DNA from: Candidatus Tayloriibacteriota bacterium | GTDB lineage: Bacteria; Patescibacteriota; Minisyncoccia; Phycocordibacterales; SIBU01 | Direction: 5' to 3' | Length of the DNA: 64,000 nucleotides | Assembly: GCA_016188455.1 (NCBI GenBank) | Contig: JACPHR010000018.1 | Location: 5,079 to 69,078, forward strand | Shown: piece by piece, positions 17,276-63,954 of the stretch | Position numbering within the stretch: the first letter of the stretch is position 1 | Layout: the number at the start of each line of letters is the position of its first letter | Position numbers and translations under genes: made by a program | The notes under the pieces: generated by a model | The model's input: the letters and a program-made list of their open reading frames with translations, nothing else | The model's database searches: none | What the model was told of the DNA's origin: nothing

Positions 17276-17284
17276 AAGCTATTG

Positions 17285-20985: not shown

Positions 20986-21060
20986 TGGCGCGTGTTACCA
21001 TAAAGGCTCCTAGATGAACATACGAATATACGAATTATACGAACAATACGAATGGCTACG
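20986..21060. repeat. AT-rich TACGAA-motif repeat region
   Basis: acatacgaatatacgaattatacgaacaatacgaatggctacgaat; related to the copies at 59341, 59855 and 60705. Confidence 0.4.
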
Positions 21061-21170
21061 AATCCCGTTAGAAGTCCAAAGATTGTATGTATATAGCAAG
21101 AGCATACATATTTGAAAAACATCGGATGTATTGCAGTACAGGATTTAGCAAGACTTCTGACGGGACGAAT
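21061..21170. repeat. Family-D palindromic element
   Basis: aatcccgttagaagtcc ... gacttctgacgggacgaat inverted ends. Confidence 0.45.
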
Positions 21171-29594: not shown

Positions 29595-29602
29595 TAACAT
29601 GA

Positions 29603-29710
29603 CCTTGAATTACAAAACTCATTGCTCCAAGAAACCTCTCCCGCTTGCCTAACTCCGGACAAGGCGCGCGGGAGGGGTTTCTCTCCGCGGATAATGAGTT
29701 TCGTAATTCA
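29603..29710. mobile_element. Family-A palindromic MITE-like element
   Basis: ccttgaattacaaaactcat...atgagtttcgtaattca perfect ends. Core ccggacaaggcgcgcgggaggggtttc. Ends 7 nt before the next ATG. Confidence 0.55.
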
Positions 29711-29717
29711 CAGTAAT

Positions 29718-31627: not shown

Positions 31628-31673
31628 TCCTTCCGCCTCTCAGGATACTCTGGATACTCTGAAAATCTCCTTG

Positions 31674-31709
31674 TTACCTAACTCAAGCGTACGCTTGAGT
31701 TAGGTAACA
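31674..31709. repeat. Perfect 36-bp palindrome (copy 1 of 2)
   Basis: gttacctaactcaagcgtacgcttgagttaggtaac. Identical 41-mer context at 43032-43072. Confidence 0.6.
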
Positions 31710-31784
31710 TAGGTGACAGGTGACCGGTGACAGATGTTTTCGCGACACAGTCAGTGTTTATGATTGACGGCTTTGTTGGTATAT

Positions 31785-33727: not shown

Positions 33728-34587
33728 AAAGTTTGTAAAGTTATAAAGTTTGGTGACAGGAGGCCGGTTTTTCTAGAAAGATCCACGAACCATTTCTTGG
33801 GCGCGATGACTATTTTCCGCGGGTTTTGGTTGAGCCAAGCGCCCCACCAGCTCATAGTGGAGTTGGCGATGATGTTGTGCCGGCACCGGCTCATCAGCGC
33901 CAATTCTTCACAGTCGCCGATTGCCGGTCGGGAAACAAAAGTGACCGCGTAGTCTTTCGGAAAATGTTCCTTCGCCCAAAGGATGTCGTCCGATGATACG
34001 AAAAAGCGGGCATCGGGAAAGTTTTCAAGAATTTTTTCGCAGGCGGCCTTGTAATAGGCGAGCGGCAAAACTCCGTGGCGGTCGGTGATTTTTTTTATGG
34101 CAACATAGTCGCCGCGGCGGATATGGAGGCTCGTGCCGTTCGGTTCGCGCGCCATTCGCGCCGCCATCTTTTCCGCCTCGCGGCCGAAAGGGTTTTTCAA
34201 AGTGAAGTTCTCCCGGACTTTTTTTTCATAACCTTTGAAGTACCGCTCGTCCTGCCAATGGCCGTCAAAATAGCCGTCATCGCGCTTTAAGATTTCCGGG
34301 TCAAAGGCGAAAGATTTTTCCAGAACCGTTTTCTTTTTTAAGTCCGGCCGAAAACGGTCCAGCATTTTTTGAAGAGTGCCGCGATAGGCGCGGATTTCAT
34401 CCGCGCTCGCCTCAGGGGCGGCGACGTTGAGTCCGTCGAGCAGGAAGGAACGACGGCTTTGATTGGGGGAGCGGAGGTAGGAAGAGTCAATTTTGAGTGG
34501 CGCATTGTGCCGCAATGAAAGCCCGCACCCGAGGGCGTATTGGAACATTTGATTGCCGAGGCCGCCTTGTAATTTAACGATAATCAT
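33724..34587 (-). CDS. Alpha-1,2-fucosyltransferase (GT11)
   Basis: GGLGNQMFQYA N-terminal motif, HIRRGDY, ...IIANSTMSWWGAWL GT11 motifs. Confidence 0.8.
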   Translation of the reverse strand: MIIVKLQGGLGNQMFQYALGCGLSLRHNAPLKIDSSYLRSPNQSRRSFLLDGLNVAAPEASADEIRAYRGTLQKMLDRFRPDLKKKTVLEKSFAFDPEILKRDDGYFDGHWQDERYFKGYEKKVRENFTLKNPFGREAEKMAARMAREPNGTSLHIRRGDYVAIKKITDRHGVLPLAYYKAACEKILENFPDARFFVSSDDILWAKEHFPKDYAVTFVSRPAIGDCEELALMSRCRHNIIANSTMSWWGAWLNQNPRKIVIAPKKWFVDLSRKTGLLSPNFITLQTL

Positions 34588-39729: not shown

Positions 39730-39739
39730 TTTGGGTATA

Positions 39740-39862
39740 GGACTTACGCAATCGGATGCAGTTCGAGGCGCGAGCTCGGCTTGCGACCAAGCTGTAGTTA
39801 GATGCTACTGCGCGGGAGCAAACGAGCGAAGCAACGAAGAAATGCGCCGATTGCGTAAGTCC
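39740..39862. mobile_element. Family-B palindromic element (intergenic copy)
   Basis: Perfect 16-bp ends ggacttacgcaatcgg / ccgattgcgtaagtcc. Interior matches the copy inside the nucleotidyltransferase gene. Confidence 0.6.
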
Positions 39863-39974
39863 TAAAGAAATAATCACCACATGGTCGCATATTCATCGGC
39901 AAAAATCAATCAACTACCGCGCAGCAAACTGACTAGGTATACCGAGTCAGACTTGCTGGCAGTGCGGTAGTTGA

Positions 39975-40076: not shown

Positions 40077-40160
40077 TTGATTATCCGCAAGCCACCTCAA
40101 AAATTTCCGGTGGGCGGATAATAAAAAATTGAAAAATCCAAACCGTTTGCTATGATTGCT

Positions 40161-40267
40161 TTGAATTACGAAACTCGTTTTTTGCGGAGAGAAACCTCTC
40201 CCGCGCGCCTTGTCCGGACGGGAGGCAAGCGGGAGGGGTTTCTCGAAGCAAGAGTTTCGTAATTCAA
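40161..40267. mobile_element. Family-A palindromic MITE-like element
   Basis: ttgaattacgaaactc...gagtttcgtaattcaa perfect 16-bp ends. Core ccttgtccggacgggaggcaagcgggaggggtttc. Lies 27 nt upstream of the nadE start. Confidence 0.55.
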
Positions 40268-40293
40268 GACATGATTACACCCATTACGTTTCT

Positions 40294-42105
40294 ATGCGTA
40301 TAGCCATACTACAACTCAATTACACAGTCGGAGATTTTGAAGGAAACGCGGCCAAGATTCTTCAAGGCTATCGTCGCGCCCGCAAAGAAGGGGCGGAGGT
40401 AGTGCTCGGGACGGAGCTCTCGCTCTTCGGCTACCCGCCGCTTGACCTGTTGGAACGCGCTGACTATATTGCGAAACAGTACGATGAATTAAAAAAATTG
40501 ACCGCCAAAATCGGCGGCGTCCCTCTGGTCATAGGCGTTGCCGAGAAAAACGAAAACAAAAAAGGCAAACCGCTTTTTAACAGCGCGGTTGTTATTCACA
40601 ACGGGCGGATTGTTCACCGCGCGCGCAAGACACTGCTTCCCACCTATGATGTCTTTGACGAGTCGCGTTATTTTGAAGCCAACGACGGGCCGGTTCGGCC
40701 TTGGGTATACAAAGGCAAAAAAATCCTTATACTGCTCTGTGAAGATATTTGGAACGGGTCCGAGAACGCCGACAATAAACTCTACCATACCTTGAATTAC
40801 GAAACTGGCGCTTCGAGAACTTCTTCCCGCCCGCCTGCCAGCGCCGGAGCCGCAGGCTATGGCGGGCAGGCTTGCTTCCCGTCCGGACAAGGCGCGCGGG
40901 ATGAAGTTCTCTTAGCGGAAACCGAGTTTCGTAATTCAAGGTACCACAAGGACCCGCTTATAGAAGCCAAGGCGCTTTCTCCCGATTTGGTATTGGTCAT
41001 CAACGGCTCGCCCTATTTTTGGGGCAAGGGAGACGGGCGGCTGTCGCTTGTCTCGGGCATCGGCCGGCGCTTGCGCTGCCCGATATTTTACGCCAATCAA
41101 GTGGGCGGCAATACGGACCTGGTTTTTGACGGGCGAAGTTTCGCGGTGGACGGAAATGGCAGATGCATCGGAGCCGCCAAACCGTTCGCCGAGGATGTCT
41201 TGATGGTTGATACCAAAACAGCCAAAGCGGTTGCATATTCCTCCGATGCTGGCAAACCGGAAGAACTTTACAACGCGCTTGTCTGCGGGGTCCGTGACTA
41301 CTTGAGGAAAATCAAAAACACCAAAGGAGTGGTGGTGGGGCTTTCGGGCGGCGTTGATTCGGCGCTGGTCGCTACCATCGCCGTGGACGCGCTCGGTGCG
41401 GACAAAGTGCGCGGCATTGCTATGCCCTCGACCTTCTCCTCCGATGAGAGTGTCATTGACGCCAAGACCCTGGCGGAAAATCTTGGCATTCAATTTGACG
41501 TTGTTCCCATTAAAAAAGCCTACGGCTCTTTCGGAGAAATACTCGGGCCGGTCATTGGCTGGGAAAAGCCGCTTGCCTTGGCCGAAGAGAATGTGCAAGC
41601 GCGCGTTCGGGGCCTGATTTTGATGGCCATTTCAAATCGCGAGGGCAATATTGTGCTCACCACCGGAAACAAATCGGAGATTGCGGTGGGCTACTGCACG
41701 CTCTACGGGGACATGGCCGGGGGCTACGCCGTGATTTCGGACATTCCCAAGACGGTTGTCTACAGCTTGGCGGAATACCGGAACGCTAAAGCCAAGAAAG
41801 ACATCATTCCGCGCCGCAGCCTTGAAAAGGCGCCGTCCGCCGAGCTTCGGCCAAACCAGAAGGACCAGGACACCTTGCCGCCTTATGACGTGCTTGACGA
41901 TATTTTAGAGCAGTATGTTGAAGAGCAGAAAGGTCTAGCTGATATTGTTAAATCGGGGCACAATCCAAAAACGGTGGAGTGGGTAATCCAGACGATTGAC
42001 AGGAACGAGTATAAACGTCGGCAGATGCCGCCCGGGCCGAAGGTCACGGGCAAAGCCTTCGGCAGCGGCCGGCGGATTCCCATCGCGGCCAAGTTTATCC
42101 TGTAG
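40294..42105 (+). CDS. nadE: Glutamine-dependent NAD+ synthetase carrying an in-frame repeat-element insertion
   Basis: N-terminal CN-hydrolase domain (...ILILLCEDIW...) plus C-terminal NAD synthetase (VVGLSGGVDSALVA, ...SDE..., ...GYCTLYGDM...). Start refined to MRIAILQL. Confidence 0.8.
   Translation: MRIAILQLNYTVGDFEGNAAKILQGYRRARKEGAEVVLGTELSLFGYPPLDLLERADYIAKQYDELKKLTAKIGGVPLVIGVAEKNENKKGKPLFNSAVVIHNGRIVHRARKTLLPTYDVFDESRYFEANDGPVRPWVYKGKKILILLCEDIWNGSENADNKLYHTLNYETGASRTSSRPPASAGAAGYGGQACFPSGQGARDEVLLAETEFRNSRYHKDPLIEAKALSPDLVLVINGSPYFWGKGDGRLSLVSGIGRRLRCPIFYANQVGGNTDLVFDGRSFAVDGNGRCIGAAKPFAEDVLMVDTKTAKAVAYSSDAGKPEELYNALVCGVRDYLRKIKNTKGVVVGLSGGVDSALVATIAVDALGADKVRGIAMPSTFSSDESVIDAKTLAENLGIQFDVVPIKKAYGSFGEILGPVIGWEKPLALAEENVQARVRGLILMAISNREGNIVLTTGNKSEIAVGYCTLYGDMAGGYAVISDIPKTVVYSLAEYRNAKAKKDIIPRRSLEKAPSAELRPNQKDQDTLPPYDVLDDILEQYVEEQKGLADIVKSGHNPKTVEWVIQTIDRNEYKRRQMPPGPKVTGKAFGSGRRIPIAAKFIL
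40789..40940. mobile_element. Family-A palindromic element inserted in frame within nadE
   Basis: Perfect 18-bp ends ccttgaattacgaaactc / gagtttcgtaattcaagg. Encodes ...TLNYETGASRTSSRPPASAGAAGYGGQACFPSGQGARDEVLLAETEFRNSRY... without interrupting the frame. Confidence 0.6.
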
Positions 42106-42976: not shown

Positions 42977-43031
42977 CTTATTATCTGCCCGCAGAATATC
43001 CAGCACTTGCTTTATCTTAATCTTACCTAAT

Positions 43032-43067
43032 GTTACCTAACTCAAGCGTACGCTTGAGTTAGGTAAC
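43032..43067. repeat. Perfect 36-bp palindrome (copy 2 of 2)
   Basis: gttacctaactcaagcgtacgcttgagttaggtaac; identical to 31674-31709. Confidence 0.6.
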
Positions 43068-43218
43068 ATAGGGCAATCGTTATTCGGTAAAAATGGCGTT
43101 GAGTCAACCTACCTAGCGGTGTGATTTTTCTCTAGTGAATGGGGTTATAGAAGCCGATTGAAAAGGCCGCCAGTGTTTGCTATGATTACGCGCACTGTCG
43201 CATTGAGTCACATAATAA

Positions 43219-45456: not shown

Positions 45457-45471
45457 ATCAAAGTTTCTTAA

Positions 45472-45691
45472 TATTGAATTACAAAACTCTTGCCAAGAGA
45501 TTCCCTTTCCACAAGCCTCGGCTCCGGACAAGGCGCGTGGAAGCGGAAAAGGTCTCTTTCCGCGAACAATCCGCATCTTTTAAGGGTATCACCGATACCC
45601 AGAAATGGCTTTTAGCCGCTATCGCGGCTAAAAGCCATTGTTGAACATTTTATGTAGCGGGAGGTGACTGAAAAAGAATTTCGTAACTTAG
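45472..45691. mobile_element. Family-A-related composite element (diverged ends, extra internal hairpins) flanked by a 10-bp direct repeat AGTTTCTTAA
   Basis: ttgaattacaaaactcttgcc...agaatttcgtaactta. Core ccggacaaggcgcgtggaagcgg. Internal 15-bp perfect stem atggcttttagccgc/gcggctaaaagccat. Direct repeats at 45462-45471 and 45692-45701. Confidence 0.45.
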
Positions 45692-48219: not shown

Positions 48220-48343
48220 CCCGTTAGAGGCAAGTCGCGATCAACCCGCGCTGTGGGTAGTTACTTTTGTTAATAATGATAGGACGGCAACACATAACAG
48301 TTCTAGCTTCTTCTTAAACCGTGACCGCGGCCTCTAACGGGAT
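48218..48343. repeat. Family-D palindromic element, intercistronic, abutting an ATG
   Basis: atcccgttagagg ... cctctaacgggat. The left end overlaps the start codon of 47341-48219, and the right end overlaps the last codons of 48303-49130. Confidence 0.5.
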
Positions 48344-49135: not shown

Positions 49136-51031
49136 TTACAGACCGTATTTTTTTAATCTTTTAAGGGCCGTAATAAAACCCTCGCCGTTGTAGTGGTGGC
49201 CCATCCAGATTTCCGGTGCCATGGTCACGTTTGTTCTAAGAATTTCCGGCATCAATATTTTCCACGGGACATCACCGTCGCCCACTTGAATACCCTCGCC
49301 GTCGGTGCCGATGCCGTCCGAGAGGTGAATATGTTTGACCAACGGTTTGAGGGTTTTGAAGAATGCTAACGGATCTTTCTTCGCAAAGGTGCAATACAGT
49401 TGAGCGTGGCTGGTGTCGTAACAAAGCGAGTAGCCGTATTTTTTGGCGAATAGATAAATTTCTTCAGCGTCGGTGAATGTGTTTGAGAACCAGGCGCCGC
49501 CTTTGTACCACGGGAAGGGCGGCAAGTTCTCTAAAAGAAGCTCAATGCCGGTTTGGTCCAGCTTTTTGAGGCCGTGGCCGAGCCGCGTATACATTTTTGC
49601 CCGTTCTTTTTTAGTGGCGAATTGGTTATAGCTCATGCCGCCGGTGTGAAGCGCCACTTTCACTTTTGGCGGCGTTTTCCCGAAATATTTTCTAATCTCA
49701 CGGACTTTCTTAAGGAAGTCGTTTATGTGTTTGATTGAAGCCCTTACCGTTTCCTTGTCGTCGGAGCAGAAATCCAAAAGTTTGTCGTCCCATAACTCAG
49801 GCGCGTGGGCCACGAGCTCAAGCTCTGGATGATTTTTGAAAACCATCGGGTGGCCGAGGTCGTGGGAGCTGAAATGAAATTCCACAAATGAAGGCTTGAG
49901 TCCCGAAATCATGTTTTCAAAATCGTGCGGCCGGACAATGAGTCCCCATTTTCGTTTTGAGCTGAAAGCGCGGTCATGCTTTTTCTTACCGAGGTCTTCT
50001 TCCGTGAAGTAGCCGTCTTTGGCGATGTCTCTTCTGGCTTTTTGCCCCACCAGTTCGTACAGCTTCTGCGGCGAAAGGCCTTTGGCCGGACTCTTGGCCG
50101 CTATCATCTCGCGGGTCAGGGTTTCTCCGGCTTTAACGGCCTTGGCCGCCACCAGGCTTTTGCCGAGAATTTTCCGATTGATGAATTCTCCCATGGTCAT
50201 GAATTTTTTGTCGCTTTGCAGCGCTTCCTCAATTCGGCGGATGTCGCGGACGAGCCTTATGATGCCGGCTGGCTCGAGCGAGATGGCATGGTCCGGTCCG
50301 GTCATTGTCCGGTCAAGGGTGATGTGGCGCTCAATCACTTTGGCCCCCAGGGGGACGGCCGCCATTGAAATGGCCAGTCCGAGCTCATGTCCTGAATAAC
50401 CGACGACACAATCAAACTTTGCCTTAAGCACCTCTATGAACTTCAGGTTAGCGTCTTTGGCGGCGGCGGGGTAGGCACTGTTGCAGTGAAGGAGAATGTA
50501 CTCCGCGCCGAGCTTGTTAAGATGCGACACAGTCGCTTCAATTTCTTCAAGCGAGGACATGCCGGTTGAAAGGATCATGGGCTTTTTCTTTGAAGCGACG
50601 TATTCGATAAGCTCAAAATTGACTAAGTCGGCCGAGGCGAGTTTGTAGGCGGGCACGTCGAGCTTTTCCAAAATGTCCACGCTCGCGATGTCCCACGGCG
50701 TGCAGAGAAACATAATGCCTTTCTCTTTGGCGTAGCGGGCGAGCATCTTGAAATTTTCATCCGACAGGGTGGCTTCGCGGATGAGGGAGAGGATGTACTG
50801 CGAAGCGATGTCTTCATGTTTCGTATTGTTAAAGGCCTTATCGGTGTAGAGGGTTTTGAAATCGCGCATCTGGAATTTCACCGCGTCGGCTTTTGCCTCA
50901 ACGGCCAGGTCAATCAGCTTTTTGGCGAGCTCAATCCGGCCGTTATGATTGATGCCCGCTTCGGCAATGATAAAAGCCGGGTGTCCGTCACCGATTAGCC
51001 GGTTGCCGATTTTGATTGTTTTGTTTTTCAT
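49136..51031 (-). CDS. NeuB-family sialic/nonulosonic acid synthase fused to a C-terminal xylose-isomerase-like TIM-barrel domain
   Basis: N-terminal about 340 aa: ...FIIAEAGINHNG..., ...CTPWD..., SAF domain. C-terminal about 290 aa: TIM-barrel sugar-phosphate isomerase/epimerase-like. Confidence 0.65.
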   Translation of the reverse strand: MKNKTIKIGNRLIGDGHPAFIIAEAGINHNGRIELAKKLIDLAVEAKADAVKFQMRDFKTLYTDKAFNNTKHEDIASQYILSLIREATLSDENFKMLARYAKEKGIMFLCTPWDIASVDILEKLDVPAYKLASADLVNFELIEYVASKKKPMILSTGMSSLEEIEATVSHLNKLGAEYILLHCNSAYPAAAKDANLKFIEVLKAKFDCVVGYSGHELGLAISMAAVPLGAKVIERHITLDRTMTGPDHAISLEPAGIIRLVRDIRRIEEALQSDKKFMTMGEFINRKILGKSLVAAKAVKAGETLTREMIAAKSPAKGLSPQKLYELVGQKARRDIAKDGYFTEEDLGKKKHDRAFSSKRKWGLIVRPHDFENMISGLKPSFVEFHFSSHDLGHPMVFKNHPELELVAHAPELWDDKLLDFCSDDKETVRASIKHINDFLKKVREIRKYFGKTPPKVKVALHTGGMSYNQFATKKERAKMYTRLGHGLKKLDQTGIELLLENLPPFPWYKGGAWFSNTFTDAEEIYLFAKKYGYSLCYDTSHAQLYCTFAKKDPLAFFKTLKPLVKHIHLSDGIGTDGEGIQVGDGDVPWKILMPEILRTNVTMAPEIWMGHHYNGEGFITALKRLKKYGL

Positions 51032-51135
51032 CCCGTTAGAAGTTTAGTAACTAATGGAAAGTGATAGTATATTAAAAGTAGCTATTCGTCCAACCCGTTT
51101 TCAAAAAAGATACCGGCTGCGCTTCTAACGGGATT
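51030..51135. repeat. Family-D palindromic element, intercistronic, abutting an ATG
   Basis: atcccgttagaag ... cttctaacgggat. The left end overlaps the start codon of the neuB-like gene. Confidence 0.5.
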
Positions 51136-51161
51136 CACGCGGCGTGTCATATGTATAACGT

Positions 51162-54093: not shown

Positions 54094-54172
54094 CGCCAGT
54101 TTTCTCTATTCTCTATTTTCTATTCTCTACTCTACTCTCTATTCTCTACCCTCTATTTTCTAACTTTCGGAT
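54094..54172. repeat. Short tandem CTATTCTCT/CTATTTTCT repeat tract
   Basis: tctctattctctattttctattctctactctactctctattctctaccctctattttc. Inverted and direct copies lie at 55074-55140 and 55203-55252. Confidence 0.6.
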
Positions 54173-55073
54173 AATTTTCCACAAACCAATTAACGGTCTG
54201 CTCTATGCCTCCGTCAACCGGAGTAAACTTAAAATCCGGCAGGTACTTTTTCAGTTTCGTTCCGTCCGACGGTTTGCGGAACTGGCCGTCGGGTTTAGAG
54301 CCGTCAAAAACGATTTTGCCCGTGAACCCCATTTTTTTGGCGATGACGAGGACGAGGTCGCGTATGGAGGTTTCAATACCGGAGGTAAATATGATCGGCG
54401 CTGACTCTTTGTAATTATCAAGCATCCACAGCGCCAGTTTGGCAATGTCATCCGTCAACACCAGTTCGCGCAAAGGTTTGCCGCTGCCCCAGACGACCAG
54501 GTCCGTATTATTTTTCTTGGCCAGGTAGCATTTATGGATGAGAGATGGCACCACGTGGCCGTCCGTGAAATTAAAATTATCATTCGGGCCGTAGATGTTT
54601 GTGGGAATGGCGATAATGTAATTGCAGCCCCACTCGCTGTTATAGGCGCTGCTTTGCACTTCAAGCATCCTTTTGGCGTAGGCATAGCCGAAATTTGAAG
54701 GATGAGGCGGGCCGTTATGCAGGTCTTTTTCGTTGAGCGGGTAGGGGCACTTGTCGGGGAAGACGCAGGTGGACATGAAAGAAATCAGTTTTTTGACGCC
54801 GGTCAATCGCGCCGCTTCCAAGACGTTGATGTTTATCATGATGTTGTTGCGGAAGTATTCCCCGGAGTGAATCATGTTGCCGCCGATGCCGCCCACTTGG
54901 GCGGCCAGATGAATCACTTTCGCCGGCCGGTGCTTTTTGAAGAGCTTCACGGTTTGGTTAAAATCGGTCAAGTCGCCGTCTTTCCGAGAAAGAAAAACCA
55001 TATTTGGCAGACCCAATCTTTTAATGGCCGAACCGATAAGGCCGCTGCCTCCCGTGACTAATGTTATAGACAT
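54153..55073 (-). CDS. GDP-L-fucose synthase family epimerase/reductase (paralog)
   Basis: ITLVTGGSGLIGSAI...YAYAKRM...NIYGPNDNFN...HVVPSLI pattern of Fcl/WcaG. Confidence 0.65.
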   Translation of the reverse strand: MSITLVTGGSGLIGSAIKRLGLPNMVFLSRKDGDLTDFNQTVKLFKKHRPAKVIHLAAQVGGIGGNMIHSGEYFRNNIMININVLEAARLTGVKKLISFMSTCVFPDKCPYPLNEKDLHNGPPHPSNFGYAYAKRMLEVQSSAYNSEWGCNYIIAIPTNIYGPNDNFNFTDGHVVPSLIHKCYLAKKNNTDLVVWGSGKPLRELVLTDDIAKLALWMLDNYKESAPIIFTSGIETSIRDLVLVIAKKMGFTGKIVFDGSKPDGQFRKPSDGTKLKKYLPDFKFTPVDGGIEQTVNWFVENYPKVRK

Positions 55074-55252
55074 AGATAATAGATGTTAGAAAACAGATAA
55101 TAGACGGTAGAAATTAGAGAATAGAAAATAGAGATTAGACTTTTTAAGAAATTGCCTTGATAAATTTGTTAAGCATTTTCGTAATTATTAGTTTTCATTT
55201 CTTTCTGTGTTCTATTTTCTATTCTCTACTCTCTATTTTCTATTCTCTCATA
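55074..55252. repeat. Inverted pair of CTATTTTCTATTCTCT-type repeat tracts with a 70-nt AT-rich spacer
   Basis: gagaatagaaaatagag (55115-55131) opposed to ctctattttctattctc (about 55225-55245). Confidence 0.55.
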
Positions 55253-56266
55253 TAAGATTTTTTGCCACTCTACAGTGCGAGAGAGTCCCTCGTCAAGCGG
55301 CACATAATCGGTTTTCTTGAATTCATTTTTCACTCTCGTCATATCTAGTTGGGTATCAAGTGGCGCGCCCGCTCCCAAGTTCTCTGATCTTGAAACCGCC
55401 GGAAAAACCACCGGCACCTTGAGCAATTTGCCGATTTTCTTCGCTAAGTCAGCAATGGTGATGGTTCCCGCGCCGCCGACATTGTAAATTGGTTCTTTGC
55501 CGAAAAGCAGTATCCGCCAGAGAATTTCCACGGCGTCGCTTACATAACAGTAGGTTCTTTTAACCTCACCATGATCCAGGAGCGTTAATTTGCCCCGCAG
55601 AGCTTTTTCAATGAAAGCATTGATAACCCGCTTGTCTCCCGGTTTCGTGCCGGGACCGTAGGCTAACGATAGCCGCGCCGATTTTGCGTCAACGGCTTGG
55701 GCTCTTTCGGCGTTGACGATGGCCTCTCCGCATCTTTTGCCCTCAATGTAGCAAGCTCTCGGGTGCGCGGTGTTTGTCGTGCCTATCATGTCCTCCCCGT
55801 AGGGGGTCGTCTCCAATCCGCTGTAGACTTCGCTGGTGCTCATAAAAAGGAACTTGCCGCCCTTCTTTAATTTTTGAAAGAGAGCGATGGTCACTGTCGT
55901 GTTAAGCCCCATGGTTTTTAGGGGATTCTCCAGAAATTTCCCGGGTTGGCCGTAGCCGGCGGCATGGATAATATAATCCGCTTGGGGCAGTGAGGCCATC
56001 AGTTTCGCATTGGTCAAATCGCCCTGTACGAAGCCCACATTTTCTCCAAAATAAGAAAGATATTCGGGAAATTTATTTTGCACGACGGCGACGATATCCA
56101 TCTTCACGCCTTTGTTCCGCAGCTCTCTTAAAGTTGCCAAAAAATACGTGCCAATGAGCCCGGACGCGCCAGTCAAGAGTATGGTTTTGCCGTCAAGTTC
56201 GCGAAAATCAATCTTCGGCAAGATTTCCAAAACGTCATTTTTAATTATGGTCGCAAGCTCATTCAT
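55226..56266 (-). CDS. NAD-dependent epimerase/dehydratase
   Basis: ILLTGASGLIGTYF..., YxxxK (YIEGKRCGE). Confidence 0.65.
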   Translation of the reverse strand: MNELATIIKNDVLEILPKIDFRELDGKTILLTGASGLIGTYFLATLRELRNKGVKMDIVAVVQNKFPEYLSYFGENVGFVQGDLTNAKLMASLPQADYIIHAAGYGQPGKFLENPLKTMGLNTTVTIALFQKLKKGGKFLFMSTSEVYSGLETTPYGEDMIGTTNTAHPRACYIEGKRCGEAIVNAERAQAVDAKSARLSLAYGPGTKPGDKRVINAFIEKALRGKLTLLDHGEVKRTYCYVSDAVEILWRILLFGKEPIYNVGGAGTITIADLAKKIGKLLKVPVVFPAVSRSENLGAGAPLDTQLDMTRVKNEFKKTDYVPLDEGLSRTVEWQKILYERIENRE

Positions 56267-57147: not shown

Positions 57148-57282
57148 GTTTCAAATGTAAAATGTAAACATCAAAATGGAAAATGACATATTGCAATATT
57201 AAAAATTTTGAGAGGTCTTAAATTATTTGATTTTGAATTTTGCATTGTCATTTTAATCTTTGATTTTTTAATTTTCAATTTA

Positions 57283-58062
57283 TCATGACGGGGAAAGTTC
57301 TTTTAAGATAATTTCCAGTTCTTCCCTGTTGGGCGCTTTGTGGTGCCAGGCCGGATTGTTTTCCATGATTTTTGAGCCGCGGCCTTTAATTGTCTCGGCG
57401 ATTACGGCCAAGGGCTTGCCGAGGTGTTTCGTTCTCAAGGCTTTTTCAATCGCTTTGTGGTCGTGGCCGTCTACCGAGACGCTCGTCCAGCCGAAAGCTT
57501 CAAACTTAGTCCTAAGGTCTCCGAGGCGAAGCGCCCGGTCGGTGGAATGATTGTAGTCCAGGATAAGCGAGAGGTTGTCCAGCTTGTGGTGGGCCGCCAA
57601 GAGCGCCGATTCCCAGACGGCGCCTTCGTTGGCCTCGCCGTCGCCGATAAGCACGAAGACGCGGGAGGGAAAGTGCTTAATCTTGAGCCCTAAAGCGTTG
57701 CCTACCGCCATGGGAAAGCCGTGACCCAGAGAGCCAGTGGAGGCTTCGGCGCCCGGCACTTTGTTTCTGTCCGGATGGCCGCCGAGACGGCTTTCAAAAT
57801 CACAGTATTTTTTCAACCACTCGCCGCTGAAGAAACCCTTTTCGGCCAAAACGGCGTAGAGGGCGAGCGACGCTTGGCCTTTGGACAGAAAGAATCTGTC
57901 CCTCCTCGGGTCGTCTGGGCGCTTCGGGTTTATGGCGAGTACCTTGTCGTAGAGGACCCAGAGGATGTCCAAAATGGAAAAATCGCTTCCGAGGTGCCCC
58001 TCGCCGGCGTGGAACGACGCCTTGACTATCAAACGTTTTAATTTGTTCAGGTTAGCTTTCAT
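57283..58062 (-). CDS. Transketolase, N-terminal (ThDP-binding) subunit
   Basis: ...HAGEGHLGSDFSILDIL..., ...GDGEANEG... ThDP motif. Confidence 0.7.
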   Translation of the reverse strand: MKANLNKLKRLIVKASFHAGEGHLGSDFSILDILWVLYDKVLAINPKRPDDPRRDRFFLSKGQASLALYAVLAEKGFFSGEWLKKYCDFESRLGGHPDRNKVPGAEASTGSLGHGFPMAVGNALGLKIKHFPSRVFVLIGDGEANEGAVWESALLAAHHKLDNLSLILDYNHSTDRALRLGDLRTKFEAFGWTSVSVDGHDHKAIEKALRTKHLGKPLAVIAETIKGRGSKIMENNPAWHHKAPNREELEIILKELSPS

Positions 58063-59353
58063 CGGATTGCTTGTTTTGGTCAGAGACTAATTTTAAGGTC
58101 CACCGGTTTTTTATGAAAATTTTTCCTTCCGGTTTTTCCGCCGGATGCGCCTGGTTGAAGTACGCCGACGGCCCGACGGTTACGGTTTTTTCTATGGTGT
58201 GTTTAGCGAGATAATTCATGACCGAAAAACGATTCAGGCTTAAACTGACGAAATAATTTCCCGGCATCAGCAATTTTTCCGGGAACAGCAAAGTTGCTTG
58301 GTATCTGCCCTTGGCGACCCGTTCAAGTTCCGGCTGCCAGTCGGAAGTGAAACTTCTTGTTAGCACGTCGCCAAGGGCGTTTTTTAAGTACACGCCCGCG
58401 CGGAAAAGCGAAAGGTTGGCGTGCGCCTCAAAGTCAATTTCAACGGTAAACGGCGTGTCCGCGTCCAAATGGGCCGTACGGATGTTTTTCTGGCTTACCG
58501 CGAAATCATGAAGTGTCACTTCGCCTTTAAGTTTCAACGGAAAAAGTTTTTCGTGGCCGGAGCTTTTTTCGTACTCGGCGGCCAGATAATGCCGGATAAC
58601 GTCTCTCGTCTCGCCCGCTTTGACGATTTTGCCGTGAGACAGAAGAATTGATGTGGGGCAAAGCTTTTCCACCGCTGACATATTGTGGCTGACGAAAAGA
58701 ATCGTCCGGCCGGCTTTGCCGGTGACCTCTTCCATTTTACCCAAACACTTTTTTTGAAACTCGGCGTCGCCGACGGCCAGCACTTCGTCAACCAGAAGGA
58801 TGTCGGGTTCAATGTGGGCGGCGATGGAGAAAGCCAGACGGACGTACATGCCGGTGGAATAGCGTTTGACCGGCGTATCAATGAAATCGCCGATGCCGGA
58901 GAAATCAACGATGGCGTTAAATTTCTCTCCGATTTCTTTGCGAGTCATGCCCAAGATGGCCCCGTTGAGGAAGACATTTTCGCGGCCCGACAGCTCGGGA
59001 TGAAAACCGGTGCCCACTTCCAGGAGCGAGGCCACCCGGCCGTTCAGTCTGACTTCCCCTTCGGTCGGCGGGGTGATTCGGGAGAGAATTTTCAGCAGGG
59101 TTGACTTGCCGGCGCCGTTAGCCCCGATAATGCCCACCGCTTCGCCTTTTTTGACTGAAAGGTTTATGTTTCGCAACGCCCAAAAAGTTTCCATTCGGTT
59201 TGTGCCCATGATGTTTCTGCCGATGCCCGCCAGCGCCGAGAGCGGATGTTTTAATTTTTCCGATATTACGTCGCGCAGCGCTACGTATCCCCGTTTCCTT
59301 CCGGTGATGTTATAACGTTTGCCGACGTTTTTTATTTCTATAATGGATAACAT
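58052..59353 (-). CDS. wzt: Polysaccharide ABC transporter ATP-binding protein with C-terminal carbohydrate-binding domain
   Basis: Walker A GANGAGKST, LSGGQ-like YSTGMYVRL, Walker B ILLVDE, plus an about 180-aa C-terminal extension typical of Wzt/TagH. Confidence 0.75.
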   Translation of the reverse strand: MLSIIEIKNVGKRYNITGRKRGYVALRDVISEKLKHPLSALAGIGRNIMGTNRMETFWALRNINLSVKKGEAVGIIGANGAGKSTLLKILSRITPPTEGEVRLNGRVASLLEVGTGFHPELSGRENVFLNGAILGMTRKEIGEKFNAIVDFSGIGDFIDTPVKRYSTGMYVRLAFSIAAHIEPDILLVDEVLAVGDAEFQKKCLGKMEEVTGKAGRTILFVSHNMSAVEKLCPTSILLSHGKIVKAGETRDVIRHYLAAEYEKSSGHEKLFPLKLKGEVTLHDFAVSQKNIRTAHLDADTPFTVEIDFEAHANLSLFRAGVYLKNALGDVLTRSFTSDWQPELERVAKGRYQATLLFPEKLLMPGNYFVSLSLNRFSVMNYLAKHTIEKTVTVGPSAYFNQAHPAEKPEGKIFIKNRWTLKLVSDQNKQSDES

Positions 59354-59420
59354 ACGAAAATTATAAGATACGAAAACTATGCGAATGGCTACGAAATGAT
59401 ACGAAAATTGCGGGGTACGA
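59341..59420. repeat. AT-rich TACGAA-motif repeat (about 60 bp; direct copy of 60705-60770) overlapping the wzt start codon
   Basis: catacgaaaattataagatacgaaaactatgcgaatggctacgaaatgatacgaaaatt. Confidence 0.45.
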
Positions 59421-59425
59421 ATTTG

Positions 59426-59836
59426 CTAATGCAGAAAATGATTATCAATATGGATGATTCTTACGGGTTTTAAAAATTTTTGTCTGAAGTTTGCAAGCAT
59501 GCCGAGTTTTAAATCGGTTTGTTGAAGATAGTTTTGCACTTGTCTATAATTATCTTTAGTGATAAAACGCGCGGATTTTATCTCTAAAATGATTTTTCCT
59601 TCAATAACAAAATCAAGAATGTTTCCGGTGCCGGCTATGGAAACTTCTCTTTCAAATTTTATGCCTTCTCTCAGTAATTTTTCCGCAATAGCATTCCCAT
59701 ACTGTTTTTCTCGAGCGAAACAACCGAGCTCTCTGTGGACTTTGAATAATACGCCATTCAAATCATAAGACAGTTTGGGATATATGACTTGGGGTCCGTA
59801 CGCGGGCTTATTTTGTTTTTTTGCTTCTGATTCCAT
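59426..59836 (-). CDS. GxxExxY family protein
   Basis: ...HRELGCFAREKQYGNAIAEKLLREGIKFEREV...DFVIEGKIILEIKS matches GxxExxY (PD-(D/E)xK-like). Start refined to MESEAK; the longer ORF reads into the repeat. Confidence 0.65.
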   Translation of the reverse strand: MESEAKKQNKPAYGPQVIYPKLSYDLNGVLFKVHRELGCFAREKQYGNAIAEKLLREGIKFEREVSIAGTGNILDFVIEGKIILEIKSARFITKDNYRQVQNYLQQTDLKLGMLANFRQKFLKPVRIIHIDNHFLH

Positions 59837-59854
59837 GATTTTTTTATTTAAATT

Positions 59855-59900
59855 TTCGTTGTAATTCGTCATCATTCGCATAATTTTCGTATGTTACACG
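59855..59900. repeat. Inverted partial copy of the TACGAA-motif repeat
   Basis: Reverse complement cgtgtaacatacgaaaattatgcgaatgatgacgaattacaacgaaaatt. Confidence 0.4.
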
Positions 59901-60709
59901 ATGTCCGCGAAATACCGTTCGGTTTTTTTGAAAAAGAAAATGCCAGCGGCCAAAAGCGCCAGGGCGGCCAAGGAGGAAATCGCCAGCGACTGCCAGCCTA
60001 TCGGTCCCGTGCCCAAGAGCCCCGCCCGGGCGGCTTTGATGACGCCGGTCATGGGATTAAAAGAGAGCAGCCAAGCGTATTTGCCGGCGATGCTTGAGGG
60101 GTAAATGACCGGCGTGAGGAAAAGCAGCAGTTGCATGAAGAAAGGCAATACGTAGCGCACATCGCGGTATTTGACGTTTATGGAGGCTAGTATCAATCCC
60201 GCGCCCACCGCCGTGGCGGAGGTGATAATCAAGAGAATCGGTATAAGCGCTATCCCGGAGAATCGCGGCGCGTAGCCGTAGTGGAACATGAGGAAGATTA
60301 AAGCCAGGCTGGCGAAAAAAAGGTCAACGAATTTGTTGGCGGTGTCGGCCAGCGGCAGAATGATTCGCGGGAAATAAACTTTGGTGACGATGGCGGCATT
60401 GCCGATGAGCGAGTTGCTGGTATCGCTCAAGGCGCTCGCGAACAGTTGCCAGAATAAGAGGCCGGTATAGACGAAGATGGGGTAGGGAATGCCGTCCGAC
60501 GGCACCTTGATCAGTTTTCCGAAGAACACGCTGAACACCACCATGGTCATAAACGGCTGGAAAATGGCCCAGCCGATGCCGACAATGGTTTGTTTGTAGC
60601 GCACCTTGATGTCGCGCCAAACGAAAAAGTACAGCAGTTCTTTGTAGCGCCAGATTTCCCTCAAGTCTTCAAGGCTGAAGGTTTTTTTTGGTTTTATTAC
60701 AGTTACCAT
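59894..60709 (-). CDS. wzm: Polysaccharide ABC transporter permease (ABC-2 type)
   Basis: Six predicted TM helices; ...LLYFFVWRDIKVRYKQTIVGIGWAIFQPF... typical Wzm N-terminus. Confidence 0.7.
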   Translation of the reverse strand: MVTVIKPKKTFSLEDLREIWRYKELLYFFVWRDIKVRYKQTIVGIGWAIFQPFMTMVVFSVFFGKLIKVPSDGIPYPIFVYTGLLFWQLFASALSDTSNSLIGNAAIVTKVYFPRIILPLADTANKFVDLFFASLALIFLMFHYGYAPRFSGIALIPILLIITSATAVGAGLILASINVKYRDVRYVLPFFMQLLLFLTPVIYPSSIAGKYAWLLSFNPMTGVIKAARAGLLGTGPIGWQSLAISSLAALALLAAGIFFFKKTERYFADIV

Positions 60710-60770
60710 ACGAAAATTATACGATACGAAAACTATGCGAATAATTACGAATGATTACGAAAATTTAAGA
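60705..60770. repeat. AT-rich TACGAA-motif repeat overlapping the wzm start codon
   Basis: catacgaaaattatacgatacgaaaactatgcgaataattacgaatgattacgaaaatt. Confidence 0.45.
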
Positions 60771-60815
60771 AATGAAAAAGAAATGAAAAGGATATAATAT
60801 TGGCGGTACTGGTAT

Positions 60816-61745
60816 TTATTTATTTTGTTTATACCACTTATAGGTGGACCGGACACCCTCTTCAAGCGGGATTTGGTGGCGCCAGCCCAGAGCGTGAATT
60901 TTTGAGACGTCAAGCCGTTTCCGGGGCATGCCGTCCGGGTTTTTCCCGTCCCAGACGACCCGGCCCTTAAAGCCCACGATTTTTTTTATCAGTTGGGCCA
61001 GTGCTTTGATGGAAATATCTTCCCCGGTGCCGACATTTATAATTTCGCTCCGGTTGTAATGCTCCATCAGAAAAACGGCGGCATCGGCGAAATCGTCAAC
61101 ATGGAGAAATTCCCGCCGCGCCACGCCGGTTCCCCAGAGGGTCAATGCTTTTTTGCCGGTTTTTTTCGCTTCATGAAATTTGCGGATGAGCGCCGGCAGA
61201 ACATGAGAGTTTTTAAGGTCAAAATTGTCATTCGGGCCGTACATATTTGTCGGCATGGCTGAAATAAAATTGGTGCCGTATTCCTCGTTATAGGACTGGC
61301 AGCTAATAATGCCGGCGATTTTGGCGATGGCGTATGCCCTGTTGGTCGGTTCCAGCGGACCGGAGAGGAAGTACTCTTCCTTAATCGGTTGCGGCGAGAG
61401 GCGGGGATAGATGCATGAACTGCCCAGGAACAGCAATTTTTTGATGCCGCTTACGTAGGAATTCTCTATGACATTTGACTGCACGACCAGATTTTCATGG
61501 ATAAACTCGGCCGGGTAATTTTTATTTGACATAATGCCCCCCACTTTGGCCGCGGCGAGAAAGACGTACTCCGGCTTTTCTTTTTTAAAAAAATCGGCCA
61601 CTTTTTTTTGGTCCAAAAGCTCCAGTTCGTCTCGGGTTCTAAGCGTCAGGTTCCCGAAGCCGCGCGCTTTAAGCGCCCGAACGATAGCGGACCCCACCAG
61701 CCCGCGGTGACCGGCAACGTAAACTTTTGAATGCTTCTTCATCAT
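60816..61745 (-). CDS. fcl: GDP-L-fucose synthase
   Basis: KVYVAGHRGLVGSAI...LTLRTRDELELLD...YAIAKIAG...NMYGPNDNF..., classic Fcl. Overlaps the gmd stop. Confidence 0.8.
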   Translation of the reverse strand: MMKKHSKVYVAGHRGLVGSAIVRALKARGFGNLTLRTRDELELLDQKKVADFFKKEKPEYVFLAAAKVGGIMSNKNYPAEFIHENLVVQSNVIENSYVSGIKKLLFLGSSCIYPRLSPQPIKEEYFLSGPLEPTNRAYAIAKIAGIISCQSYNEEYGTNFISAMPTNMYGPNDNFDLKNSHVLPALIRKFHEAKKTGKKALTLWGTGVARREFLHVDDFADAAVFLMEHYNRSEIINVGTGEDISIKALAQLIKKIVGFKGRVVWDGKNPDGMPRKRLDVSKIHALGWRHQIPLEEGVRSTYKWYKQNK

Positions 61746-62872: not shown

Positions 62873-63014
62873 ACATTATTTGGTTTCGATGCGAATATAC
62901 TAATTTACTAATCATACTAATGGGCGTTTTCTCAATTCGCATCATTAGCATGAATTCGTATATTAGCATCGCTACTGCGTCAGCCAGTATAACATGTTCC
63001 ACCGCGTGAATGTT

Positions 63015-63260: not shown

Positions 63261-63469
63261 AAAGTTTAAAAGTTGCAAGTTAGAAAGTTTGAAAGTTACA
63301 AAGCATGAAAACCTGCGCACTTTTTACTTTCCAACTTTTTTCTTGCGTACTTGTCGCTTTCTAACTTACTATAAGTGTCAAAAGGTGTCAACTCGGTTCA
63401 CCTGCTTTTCTTTTATAACACGGCGCGCGGGTGTTTTGTTATCGGACACCGATGTGCTATAGTATGTTT

Positions 63470-63673
63470 ATGGCAACCTTACGCTACAAAAATAAGTTGA
63501 CACACGCGGTTCGCAAGCAGGTGGCGGCGGCTTTTCGGGAACTGTTGAGCGACCCGGATGCGGGGTCTGTGCTTCGTCCCGCATTTGAGTCGCGTCTTCG
63601 GAAGTCGGTCAGGTCCGCGGAGGCCGGGCGAGTGAAAGATTTTTCGGAAATTTTTAAGCGATATCGGGTGTAA
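63470..63673 (+). CDS. Putative antitoxin of a RelE/ParE pair
   Basis: Small ORF ending 5 bp upstream of the toxin gene. No strong family motif. Confidence 0.35.
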   Translation: MATLRYKNKLTHAVRKQVAAAFRELLSDPDAGSVLRPAFESRLRKSVRSAEAGRVKDFSEIFKRYRV

Positions 63674-63678
63674 CGACC

Positions 63679-63954
63679 ATGTGGCGATTTCGCTTTTCTT
63701 TGGAGGCCGAAACCGATTTTGCCCGCCTTGAGCGGATTATGCAAAAGCGTGTTGCGAAAAAGTTGCGTTACTTTGAAGCTCATTTTGAAGAGACCGTTCC
63801 GTCTCCGCTCGGGGGCGCGTGGAATGGTTTTTTCAAACTGCGGGTCGGGGATTGGCGCATTGTGTACGGGGTTCACAATGCGAACGAGCTCATTACTGTG
63901 TATGTGATTGACCACCGAAGCCGGATTTATAGAAGAACTCCGCCAAGACTGTAG
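63679..63954 (+). CDS. RelE/ParE-family type II toxin
   Basis: ...GFFKLRVGDWRIVYGVHNANELITVYVIDHRSRIY, characteristic ParE/RelE C-terminal region. Confidence 0.55.
   Translation: MWRFRFSLEAETDFARLERIMQKRVAKKLRYFEAHFEETVPSPLGGAWNGFFKLRVGDWRIVYGVHNANELITVYVIDHRSRIYRRTPPRL

Follow-up and report, generated by a model that had tools for sequence, protein, structure and literature searches.

A dispersed promoter-like repeat module and a candidate GxxExxY cassette between wzm and wzt in a Candidatus Tayloriibacteriota genome

In the REP/RAYT system (REPtrons and REPINs), the gene of an HUH Y1 transposase lies between inverted copies of a short hairpin palindrome, and this repeat is also dispersed between genes, as singlets and inverted doublets that far outnumber the gene. 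The Correia elements of Neisseria and similar MITEs are small inverted-repeat insertions within operons, whose ends can serve as outward-facing promoters and whose transcribed stems are substrates of RNase III; Correia elements come without a gene, and a TA target is duplicated at their insertion. Free-standing homing endonuclease genes, such as seg and mob of phage T4, are a further type of small insertion, and a PD-(D/E)XK enzyme, I-Ssp6803I, is known as an intron-borne homing endonuclease. As to expression signals, in the leaderless-mRNA promoters of Deinococcus and Mycobacterium the -10 box precedes the ATG by about 6-7 nt and a Shine-Dalgarno sequence is absent. The promoters of Patescibacteria are, to our knowledge, almost uncharacterised, and genetic tools for the group are only now emerging. 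Small ORFs also occur within insertions in the rRNA genes of CPR bacteria (PMC11270868).

We analysed a window of 64,000 nucleotides, that is, the whole stretch of the contig considered here, around a GxxExxY gene that separates wzm from wzt. The features concerned are as follows.

58052..59353, minus strand: wzt, ABC ATPase with a Wzt_C domain (PF00005 and PF14524), downstream of the proposed cassette.
59351..59425, minus strand: arm A, direct module (nhmmer match 59409-59368, E = 2.4e-9), its 3' end being the wzt start codon; it reads on the minus strand AATTCGTA..TTTTCGTAT CATTTCGTAG CCATTCGCAT AGTTTTCGTAT CT TATAAT TTTCGT ATG.
59351..59893, minus strand: the proposed insertion cassette as a whole (543 bp), made up of the inverted arm, the GxxExxY gene and the direct arm.
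59426..59875, minus strand: GxxExxY gene, 149 aa from the ATG at 59875 (MMTNYNENL...).
59839..59896, plus strand: arm C, module in the opposite orientation (nhmmer match 59850-59892 on the plus strand, E = 1e-8), with inverted repeats.
59894..60709, minus strand: wzm, ABC-2 permease (PF01061), upstream of the proposed cassette.
60707..60777, minus strand: copy B, solo module (nhmmer match 60766-60724, E = 1.5e-10), its 3' end being the wzm start codon.
21021..21063, minus strand: solo degenerate module (nhmmer E = 1.5e-3), with five TACGAA boxes 8-10 nt apart.
62887..62971, no strand assigned: empty inverted pair of degenerate boxes, between HTH_17 and gmd.

A first-pass annotation had described direct repeat copies at 59341-59420 and 60705-60770 and an inverted partial copy at 59855-59900. 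Self-comparison of the window bears this out: 59328-59409 and 60684-60765 are direct copies, identical at 80% over 82 nt, and the inverted copy pairs both as 59839-59892 with 60724-60777 (54 nt, 81% complementary) and as 59851-59896 with 59364-59409 (46 nt, 80%). All three copies end in the same 14-mer, CATACGAAAATTAT, at 59351-59364, at 60707-60720 and, as the reverse complement, at 59880-59893, and in the two that flank the GxxExxY gene the terminal inverted repeat is perfect over 17 nt (59348-59364 / 59880-59896). The GC content of the AT-rich intergenic regions is 0.27-0.35, and the annotation had itself named low-complexity sequence with no significant similarity as what would undo its claim. 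Chance resemblance of such sequence is already refuted by the alignments, the identical 14-mers and the perfect inverted repeat, and by conservation of the same module at 40 loci of other genomes, so that we leave it practically no chance. A pattern of three spaced TACGAA boxes matches four times in the window as against 0.00 in 100 shuffles (none of which contained it), and the 19-mer ATACGAAAAYTATGCGAAT occurs three times for a chance expectation that we estimate ourselves at about 1e-6.

Each copy had been said to begin exactly at the CAT of a gene. This is true of wzt (59351-59353, the CAT of copy A, that is, arm A) and of wzm (60707-60709, the CAT of copy B), whose starts agree with orthologous N-termini in relatives, but not of the longest GxxExxY ORF, whose ATG (59879-59881) is set back by about 12 nt from the end of the inverted copy; it is this end that adjoins the wzm stop codon (59894-59896), with an ATG on the plus strand (59891-59893). 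The two related tracts reported elsewhere were also recovered. The one given as 20986-21060 corresponds to five boxes at 21021-21062, with no adjoining gene start, and the one at 62873-62990, near gmd, contains the inverted pair (62887-62905 / 62953-62971, 19 nt, 89%), with boxes ATGCGAAT / ATACTAAT ... ATTAGTAT / ATTCGCAT. Further empty pairs lie at 57153-57281 and 55083-55253.

The tracts are copies of a dispersed module of about 45 bp that is common in Patescibacteria. Its boxes, four or five of the ATTCGTAT type, recur every 10-11 bp, about one helical turn, and a -10-like hexamer is embedded in them (CATAAT in the consensus, a perfect TATAAT in the window copies). Of the 49 loci returned by a scan with the 19-mer, 40 belong to Patescibacteria and have flanking boxes; the other 9 match the 19-mer alone, which fits our own estimate of about 9 chance matches. 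The position of the motif relative to starts, on which the first-pass annotation had proposed to rely, was recorded at the 40 loci: the module ends 1-7 nt from the start (3 nt in 12 cases, 4 nt in 7 and 5 nt in 5), and the start codons that it leads have no Shine-Dalgarno sequence. An ORF start falls within -6 to +12 nt of 73 of 169 module matches, compared with 14.6% at random positions. The genes concerned are unrelated to one another (dnaK, fusA, ribosomal protein genes, secE, nusA, pyrG, murF and others), and in one case the module ends 5 nt from a tRNA-Val gene. The module is thus not specific to export genes: of the earlier alternative of a promoter/operator module of export operons, the promoter part is supported by the placement before start codons and the -10-like hexamer, but the restriction to export operons is contradicted by the housekeeping and tRNA genes. 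Nor is it a general tRNA or housekeeping promoter, since only 1 of 27 tRNA genes has it, the remainder having TGnTAtAAT promoters, and most genes of the window are without it. Among viral contigs the 19-mer matched once, without flanking boxes, and we took this for chance; Rfam 15 gave no match at gathering score over the whole window and only chance-level matches at E of 5 or less over 59200-60900. The HTH_17 gene upstream of gmd was considered as encoding a box-binding factor, but this is unsupported, as the gene is kept in relatives whose operon is free of the module.

With its end 0-7 nt from a start codon devoid of a Shine-Dalgarno sequence, the forward module is most likely a promoter that would start transcription at or just before the ATG and yield a leaderless or near-leaderless mRNA. 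In arm A and in copy B, which share the terminus TATAAT-TTTCGT-ATG, the hexamer stands 6 nt before the ATG, that of wzt in arm A being again without a Shine-Dalgarno sequence; CATAAT and TATAAT both have the A at position 2 and the T at position 6 expected of a sigma-70 -10 element, as a sequence match only. A simple consensus scan for sigma-70 promoters and terminators, whose counts were at shuffle level, returned nothing in the modules: in none of the three did it find a -35 hexamer (TTGACA-like, 16-18 nt upstream) paired with a -10, and TTCGTA boxes occupy the region upstream of the -10 instead. The absence of a Shine-Dalgarno sequence and the ATG at the predicted transcript start are those of a leaderless gene, and many other first genes of the window likewise lack a Shine-Dalgarno sequence and carry a TATAAT-like box 6-10 nt upstream of the ATG. 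The module may also act in both directions. Its -10-to-ATG geometry is that of the leaderless promoters of Deinococcus and Mycobacterium; those, however, share the -10 hexamer only, whereas here a block of about 45 bp is conserved nearly base for base across lineages and repeated within genomes.

The enclosed gene has several possible starts, the longest ORF beginning at 59881 and an internal ATG lying at 59836. We prefer 59875 to 59881, since the former ATG lies within a box, TTATGCGAAT, and gives the M-x-T-N pattern of the family; the N-termini of homologues (MRMATN and MxTNK) are of the same type and correspond to the translated inverted module. The product scores 71.4 bits with TIGR04256 (cut-off 35) and 76.2 bits with PF13366 (PDDEXK_3; cut-off 22). 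Across 52 homologues E43, D75, E85 and K87 are invariant, including the catalytic D...ExK, and an AF2 model (pLDDT 88.5) has a PD-(D/E)XK fold with the order H-H-E-E-E-H-E-E. Among known folds it comes closest to Cas4 SSO0001, lambda exonuclease and splicing endonucleases, in each case weakly (TM 0.48 or less). By family membership and modelled fold alike, the protein is a predicted PD-(D/E)XK nuclease. A sequence search of the PDB found no relative, PHROGs gave families without function only, PADLOC weak Cas4b matches only, and tblastn of plasmids with the GxxExxY consensus no match. Proteins of the PF13366/TIGR04256 type appear without assigned function in a published listing (PMC3424549).

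The comparison of wzm-wzt gene order in relatives lacking the GxxExxY gene, also proposed by the first-pass annotation, was informative. Four relatives (L145 to L148), with Wzm proteins 86-89% identical to that of the window, have the operon HTH_17-gmd-fcl-wzm-wzt with neither the module nor the GxxExxY gene. Their wzm and wzt are 7, 4, 4 and 25 nt apart, compared with 540 nt here and 596 nt at locus L052, where arm C is conserved too. As the same operon thus exists with its two genes 4-25 nt apart, the 543-bp unit is an insertion, which occupies exactly the interval from the wzm stop codon to the wzt ATG inclusive. Like an IS or MITE, it has terminal inverted repeats (perfect over 17 nt, about 80% over 46-54 nt) and relatives with an intact empty site (4-7 nt in L145 to L147); at its flanks, GTGTAA| and |TTATCC, no target-site duplication was found, and the unit stands in place of the 4-7-nt spacer present at the empty sites. 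Module positions vary among close relatives at the other junctions as well: the fcl-wzm gap is 106 nt here and 9-52 nt, module-free, in L145 to L148, while L052 has a different, TCTAT-type module there and L081 a second GxxExxY cassette, and the HTH-gmd gap is 142 nt here as against 15-58 nt in relatives.

These data bear on the view that the modules belong entirely to host regulation, as a promoter typical of the lineage or an array of sites for a conserved factor, with arms that are not part of a mobile unit and GxxExxY an unrelated selfish or accessory gene that persists between transcription units. In its favour, modules far outnumber GxxExxY genes and precede core housekeeping genes in many lineages, and the 10-11 bp phasing of the boxes would suit a protein bound on one face of the helix. 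We nevertheless hold it to be unlikely: in the window lineage the gene and both arms are present together and in the relatives they are absent together, and it leaves unexplained what is seen at other GxxExxY genes. At most of 80 homologue loci in Patescibacteria the gene is bracketed by an inverted array 5' and a direct module 3' adjoining the next ATG, and the 5' inverted module, found at nearly every homologue, is aimed at no gene. Of the gene-adjacent module matches, 35 are direct on the 3' side, 18 inverted on the 5' side and 3 wrongly oriented, enrichments that are conditional on the choice of these loci for their GxxExxY gene. Arms of the same locus are more similar to each other than to those of other loci (23.4 vs 17.4, p = 5.5e-7), and codons are embedded in the arms, the start codon here and the stop codon within a TTNGTA box at 39 of 79 homologue loci, neither of which this view accounts for. 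The earlier proposal of a small cassette flanked by inverted copies is thus upheld as to the insertion, absent from four relatives, and as to the recurrence of the layout at most homologues; the cassette and promoter-module readings are each partly supported and are not mutually exclusive.

The similarity of arms within a locus has another possible source, an RNA-level element like those inserted in rRNA, in which the arms would pair in a read-through transcript and RNase III would free the GxxExxY mRNA, the wzt mRNA then starting at its AUG. The predicted arm-arm duplex is strong (-41.7 kcal/mol vs -11.5 +/- 2.9 for shuffles), the minimum free energy fold of the cassette pairs the arms with each other, and their co-variation within loci would fit; yet such a stem is expected of any inverted DNA repeat, solo modules at housekeeping genes and at the tRNA gene have no partner, and no Rfam family matches, which makes this explanation improbable. 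The ORFs of rRNA insertions (23S_rRNA_IVP, four-helix-bundle) are likewise small, without assigned function and in an insertion bounded by inverted repeats, but here the protein family is another, the operon is protein-coding and excision at the RNA level is unsupported.

About 25 of the 80 homologues reside between wzm and wzt and fall into at least three clades of a neighbour-joining tree, which is weak, being built on about 120 residues. With the empty sites of close relatives, this could argue for a free-standing homing endonuclease that would cut the empty junction (e.g. wzm|wzt) in genomes without it and be copied into the site during repair, with arms that supply only promoters against polarity. 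The flanking codons (..YFADIV*, M..IIEIKN) would be highly conserved targets, PD-(D/E)XK homing endonucleases exist, and I-Ssp6803I is among the weak fold matches of our model. As with homing genes, a small lone nuclease gene with its own expression signals lies between conserved genes and is present or absent in relatives; T4 seg and mob enzymes, however, are GIY-YIG or HNH and have neither inverted-repeat brackets nor gene-less repeat copies. We judge homing quite unlikely, as vertical inheritance with loss could produce the same weak tree, and solo modules and empty pairs elsewhere are left unexplained.

We lean slightly towards a model in which modules that probably act as promoters for leaderless mRNA form the inverted arms of an inserted nuclease cassette. 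The two inverted modules are the arms of a 543-bp cassette with a GxxExxY-type PD-(D/E)XK nuclease gene, inserted exactly between the wzm stop codon and the wzt start codon. The wzt-facing arm would supply a new transcription and translation start to wzt, so that the polar effect of the insertion would be offset. The other arm, whose promoter-like direction on the plus strand faces the 3' end of wzm, holds the start region of the nuclease gene, perhaps with a reverse-facing -10 (GAAAAT) 7 nt before its ATG, and would otherwise read antisense into wzm. The copy before wzm would be a solo arm, and the nuclease might spread the cassette and gene-less modules alike, in the way that RAYT spreads REP sequences. 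Modules do exist on their own and in empty inverted pairs, their sites varying from one relative to another, and between diverging arms there are 7-105 nt or else a GxxExxY gene. However, only 3 of the 40 loci to which the module led have a GxxExxY gene within 8 kb, so that solo modules are not demonstrably linked to the nuclease. It also speaks against the model that GxxExxY copies share 55-67% identity and group for the most part by insertion site, which resembles an old and mainly vertical residence more than recent transposition.

One might speculate, and we do so only tentatively, that GxxExxY proteins, a large family, are the nucleases of an undescribed class of small mobile cassettes in Patescibacteria, with ends that are portable promoters for leaderless mRNA and with gene-less derivatives that have reached many gene starts, housekeeping genes included, splitting and rewiring operons; this would be a PD-(D/E)XK counterpart of REP/RAYT. 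As in REPtrons, a nuclease gene here is enclosed by a short repeat in inverted copies, and the repeat is also found apart from the gene, as intergenic singlets and inverted doublets far more numerous than the gene itself. The enclosed protein, by contrast, is a PF13366 protein of about 130-150 aa with a predicted PD-(D/E)XK fold and not an HUH Y1 transposase (PF01797), the repeat is a phased array of 8-mers instead of a hairpin palindrome, and the module keeps a fixed distance to the start codon and has a -10-like box. The window also holds a Y1 / REP-associated transposase (10580-11260), between inverted TAATTGGTGTCA arrays. The empty pairs at 62887-62971, 57153-57281 and 55083-55253 resemble Correia elements, but here there is no target duplication and there is a full-length form with a nuclease gene.

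The searchable literature on GxxExxY/PF13366, on promoters of Patescibacteria and on IVS proteins contained nothing on the module or the cassette. If the model is correct, it would provide a first genomic role for PF13366/TIGR04256, a widespread family annotated merely as "GxxExxY protein", and would define for Patescibacteria a transcription-start module whose conserved sequence is easy to search for. The compact operons of these reduced genomes would then be split by small insertions with their own leaderless expression signals. In practice the module may help gene calling in CPR bacteria as a marker of true start codons, and it can point out N-terminal extensions (MRMATN..., MDTN...) that the repeat has probably produced as artefacts or by-products.

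TACGAA-type repeats around the GxxExxY gene, first noticed by eye in the first-pass annotation, were recovered by alignment. The two direct copies, 59328-59409 (copy A) and 60684-60765 (copy B), are 80% identical over 82 nt, and the third copy is inverted, being 81% complementary to copy B (59839-59892 against 60724-60777) and 80% complementary to copy A (59851-59896 against 59364-59409). All three share one end, the 14-mer CATACGAAAATTAT. A pattern of three spaced TACGAA boxes matches 4 times in the window, versus 0 times in 100 shuffles. The two more distant tracts of that annotation are related to these copies: the one put at about 20986-21060 holds five TACGAA boxes (21021-21062), and the one near gmd is a degenerate inverted pair (62887-62905 and 62953-62971). 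The proposal that every copy begins at the CAT of a start codon holds for copies A and B, whose CATs are the start codons of wzt and wzm (both starts agree with orthologous N-termini in relatives), but not for the third copy, where the longest GxxExxY ORF has its ATG (59881) within the repeat and the end of the copy adjoins the wzm stop codon.

58052-59353, minus strand: wzt
59351-59893: GxxExxY gene with its two arms
59894-60709, minus strand: wzm

The gene and its arms fill the space between the wzm stop and the ATG of wzt exactly, and they end in a perfect 17-nt terminal inverted repeat. Four relatives (loci L145-L148, Wzm 86-89% identical) share the gene order HTH_17-gmd-fcl-wzm-wzt without the GxxExxY gene, and their wzm and wzt nearly abut, with gaps of 7, 4, 4 and 25 nt; the unit is therefore an insertion, in line with the cassette that had been proposed from the inverted copies. 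No module was found within the operon of these relatives; L148 has two boxes at wzm|wzt. Names of the closest Wzm proteins point to a Paceibacterota/Taylorbacteria relative as the probable source of the window. The same insertion, with both arms kept, is found in a strain with a 99% identical protein (L050/L051) and in a relative with an 89% identical one (L052-L054).

The ORF belongs clearly to TIGR04256/PF13366, the GxxExxY family, which is without known function (PMC3424549). Aligned with 52 sequences in all, the homologues show no variation at E43, D75, E85 and K87, and the confident AlphaFold model (pLDDT 88.5) has a minimal PD-(D/E)XK fold, which resembles Cas4, lambda exonuclease and splicing endonucleases only weakly.

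Along the transcribed direction, the sequence of copies A and B is AATTTTCGTA-ATCATTCGTA-ATTATTCGCA-TAGTTTTCGTAT-CG-TATAAT-TTTCGT-ATG, with boxes of the ATTCGTAT type spaced by about 10-11 nt, a perfect TATAAT 6 nt 5' of the ATG and no Shine-Dalgarno sequence ahead of it. A search for the 19-mer ATACGAAAAYTATGCGAAT in one genome per bacterial species (596 Gb) gave 49 loci. Forty are titled as Patescibacteria lineages (Saccharibacteria, Paceibacterota, Zambryskibacteria, Nomurabacteria), and in all 40 the 19-mer sits within the same block of about 45 nt (consensus aatTnTTCGTAgccaTTCGTAnttATTCGCATAATTTTCGTAT); in the other 9, from other phyla, the 19-mer alone matches, our own chance estimate over 596 Gb being about 9. 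The Patescibacteria blocks end 1-7 nt 5' of the ATG of unrelated genes (3 nt, n = 12; 4 nt, n = 7; 5 nt, n = 5; 6 nt, n = 3). By putative names, read off the translations, these include dnaK, fusA, nusA, pyrG, gatA, murF, ssb, the genes of ribosomal proteins L9, L15, L31 and L36, secE, pilB, pilC and a CheY-like regulator; in addition, a single tRNA-Val gene lies 5 nt 3' of a block. With an iterated nhmmer profile on 0.94 Mb of such DNA, an ORF start fell at -6 to +12 nt in 73 of 169 matches, versus 14.6% of random positions. The earlier alternative of a promoter/operator module of export operons has support in the placement at gene starts, but the module is not specific to export, as it precedes genes such as the putative dnaK and fusA.

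At other tRNA genes in these loci, TGnTAtAAT boxes lie 7-17 nt to the 5' side, and the GCATAAT of the module occupies the equivalent place. From its position and sequence, we infer a promoter function for the module, with mRNAs that would be leaderless or nearly so; a canonical -35 was not found in the modules. Few genes of the window have a Shine-Dalgarno sequence, and several first genes without one (e.g. 3628-4701, 33724-34587 and 13093-14028) have a TATAAT-like box 6-10 nt 5' of the ATG, a sign that this genome may often use leaderless expression. The inverted arm also has a -10-like GAAAAT on the reverse strand of the module, 7 nt 5' of the ATG at 59875, which shares 2 bp with the forward CATAAT, so that the core 19-mer could fire both ways.

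The bracketed layout is general among 80 homologue loci collected by a metagenome scan that used the protein alignment as query. An inverted ATAC(G/A/T/C)AAT box array lies 5' of nearly every homologue gene, often starting straight behind the stop codon of the preceding gene, and a direct module lies 3', ending 0-7 nt ahead of the next ATG. Profile matches adjoining the gene were direct and 3' in 35 cases and inverted and 5' in 18, with only 3 in the wrong orientation. As annotated, the N-termini of most homologues (MRMATN, MQMTTNK, MxTNKK) are translated ATGCGAATGGCTACGAAT, that is, inverted module, and the stop codon falls within the first TTNGTA box at 39 of 79 loci; both ends of the ORF thus lie within the arms. 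The two arms of a locus resemble each other (mean local score 23.4) more than arms of different loci (17.4, p = 5.5e-7; same-orientation control, 13.6). Across the whole data set, what lies between diverging arms is either a stretch of 7-105 nt (empty pairs) or a GxxExxY gene, in some cases accompanied by an HD or HTH passenger. The best-supported reading is a cassette in which inverted arms with putative promoters bracket a nuclease gene; the arm beside wzt would restore wzt expression from a leaderless start, and the other contains the start of the nuclease gene. The arms might instead act at the RNA level, pairing as a stem in read-through RNA, and they are predicted to pair at -41.7 kcal/mol, versus -11.5 +/- 2.9 for shuffles; the same is expected of any inverted repeat, and solo modules have no partner.

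As against the cassette, one might regard the modules as purely host regulatory DNA. As a sign of mobility, module sites vary among close relatives. The fcl|wzm junction has a TTCGTA module in the window, is empty in L145-L148 and in L052 bears instead a TCTAT-type module with TATAAT before wzm (L052 2900-2933). In L145 (109-148), a complete reverse module separates the HTH_17 gene from a canonical TTGACA-N17-TACAAT promoter and adds to the called protein the extension MDTNGYEKT, absent from relatives. Empty inverted pairs occur in the window at HTH|gmd, at 55083-55253 and between the transketolase-subunit genes, which overlap by 4 nt in L147:

57153-57188 and 57246-57281: AT-rich inverted pair (36 nt, 75%) in the 135-nt gap that separates these two genes

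A GxxExxY gene lies within 8 kb of only 3 of the 40 loci found by the module, so gene-less modules are the majority. One rival explanation gives the nuclease a REP/RAYT-like role, in which it may move both these and the cassette. The GxxExxY copies are 55-67% identical and cluster largely by site, which counts against recent transposition; no target duplication was seen. About 25 of the 80 homologues sit at wzm|wzt, and a metagenome contig (L081 1043-2778) has two paralogous cassettes around wzm, in the order fcl-GxxExxY-wzm-GxxExxY. The wzm|wzt homologues fall into at least three clades of a simple, weak NJ tree, in which the window protein groups with homologues from another site; this scatter suggests recurrent use of the junction. 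Alternatively, the nuclease could be a homing enzyme for conserved junctions.

Among known systems, REP/RAYT is the closest in architecture, but the GxxExxY cassette lacks the HUH transposase and the hairpin unit; it also resembles promoter-carrying MITEs, among them the Correia elements, but without their target duplication. No Rfam family matches, and we found no description of the module or cassette in the literature searched, which covered few subscription journals.

The window holds other small repeats. A REP-associated/IS200-like Y1 transposase gene (10580-11260, plus strand) lies between inverted tandem TAATTGGTGTCA arrays (10365-11484), which repeats the layout of the GxxExxY cassette with a different enzyme, and the locus has a perfect 115-nt direct repeat (11158-11272 and 11317-11431). 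In a second family, about 75-100 nt separate the terminal inverted repeats CCCGTTAGAA ... TTCTAACGGG, and one end adjoins the start codon of four genes, as TTCTAACGGG-ATG (at 1280, 25822, 48219 and 51031). The third consists of palindromic elements of about 70-110 nt (GAATTACGAAACTC ... GAGAAACCCCTCCCGCGCGCC ... GGCGCGCGGGAGGGGTTTCTC ...) that lie at gene boundaries and share 74-93% similarity.

10365-10549, forward; 11256-11318 and 11415-11484, reverse: TAATTGGTGTCA arrays
25823-25941, 51029-51136, 21063-21165, about 1100-1150: CCCGTTAGAA/TTCTAACGGG elements
1266-1279, 48220-48232: single ends of the same family
9906-9988, 17280-17380, 19108-19224, 29601-29717, 40150-40273, 40786-40953, 45466-45546: palindromic elements of the third family

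TCTAT-type phased arrays follow the same logic as the TACGAA module (54102-54162, 55072-55139, 55202-55260); the fcl-like gene 54153-55073 has its ATG where one of them ends, and there is an inverted partner that overlaps the stop codon of 55226-56266. An element of about 125 nt with inverted ends (TAGGACTT.CGCA.TCGG...) has two opposite copies (25404-25528 and 39737-39864; 53-60-nt pieces, 90-96%). One of them, perhaps inserted in frame, sits within the NTP_transferase ORF 24968-25822; the Pfam match of this ORF comes in two separate stretches. Two identical, perfect 42-nt palindromes (TGTTACCTAACTCAAGCGTACGCTTGAGTTAGGTAACATAGG) are intergenic and 11 kb apart (31672-31713 and 43031-43072). 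The window also encodes a ParE toxin (63679-63954) with an 80-aa ORF ahead of it (63431-63954 region), a ParD-like antitoxin domain (7209-7595) and a DUF2283 gene (6613-6879) with AATAAAATACG repeats at its 5' end.
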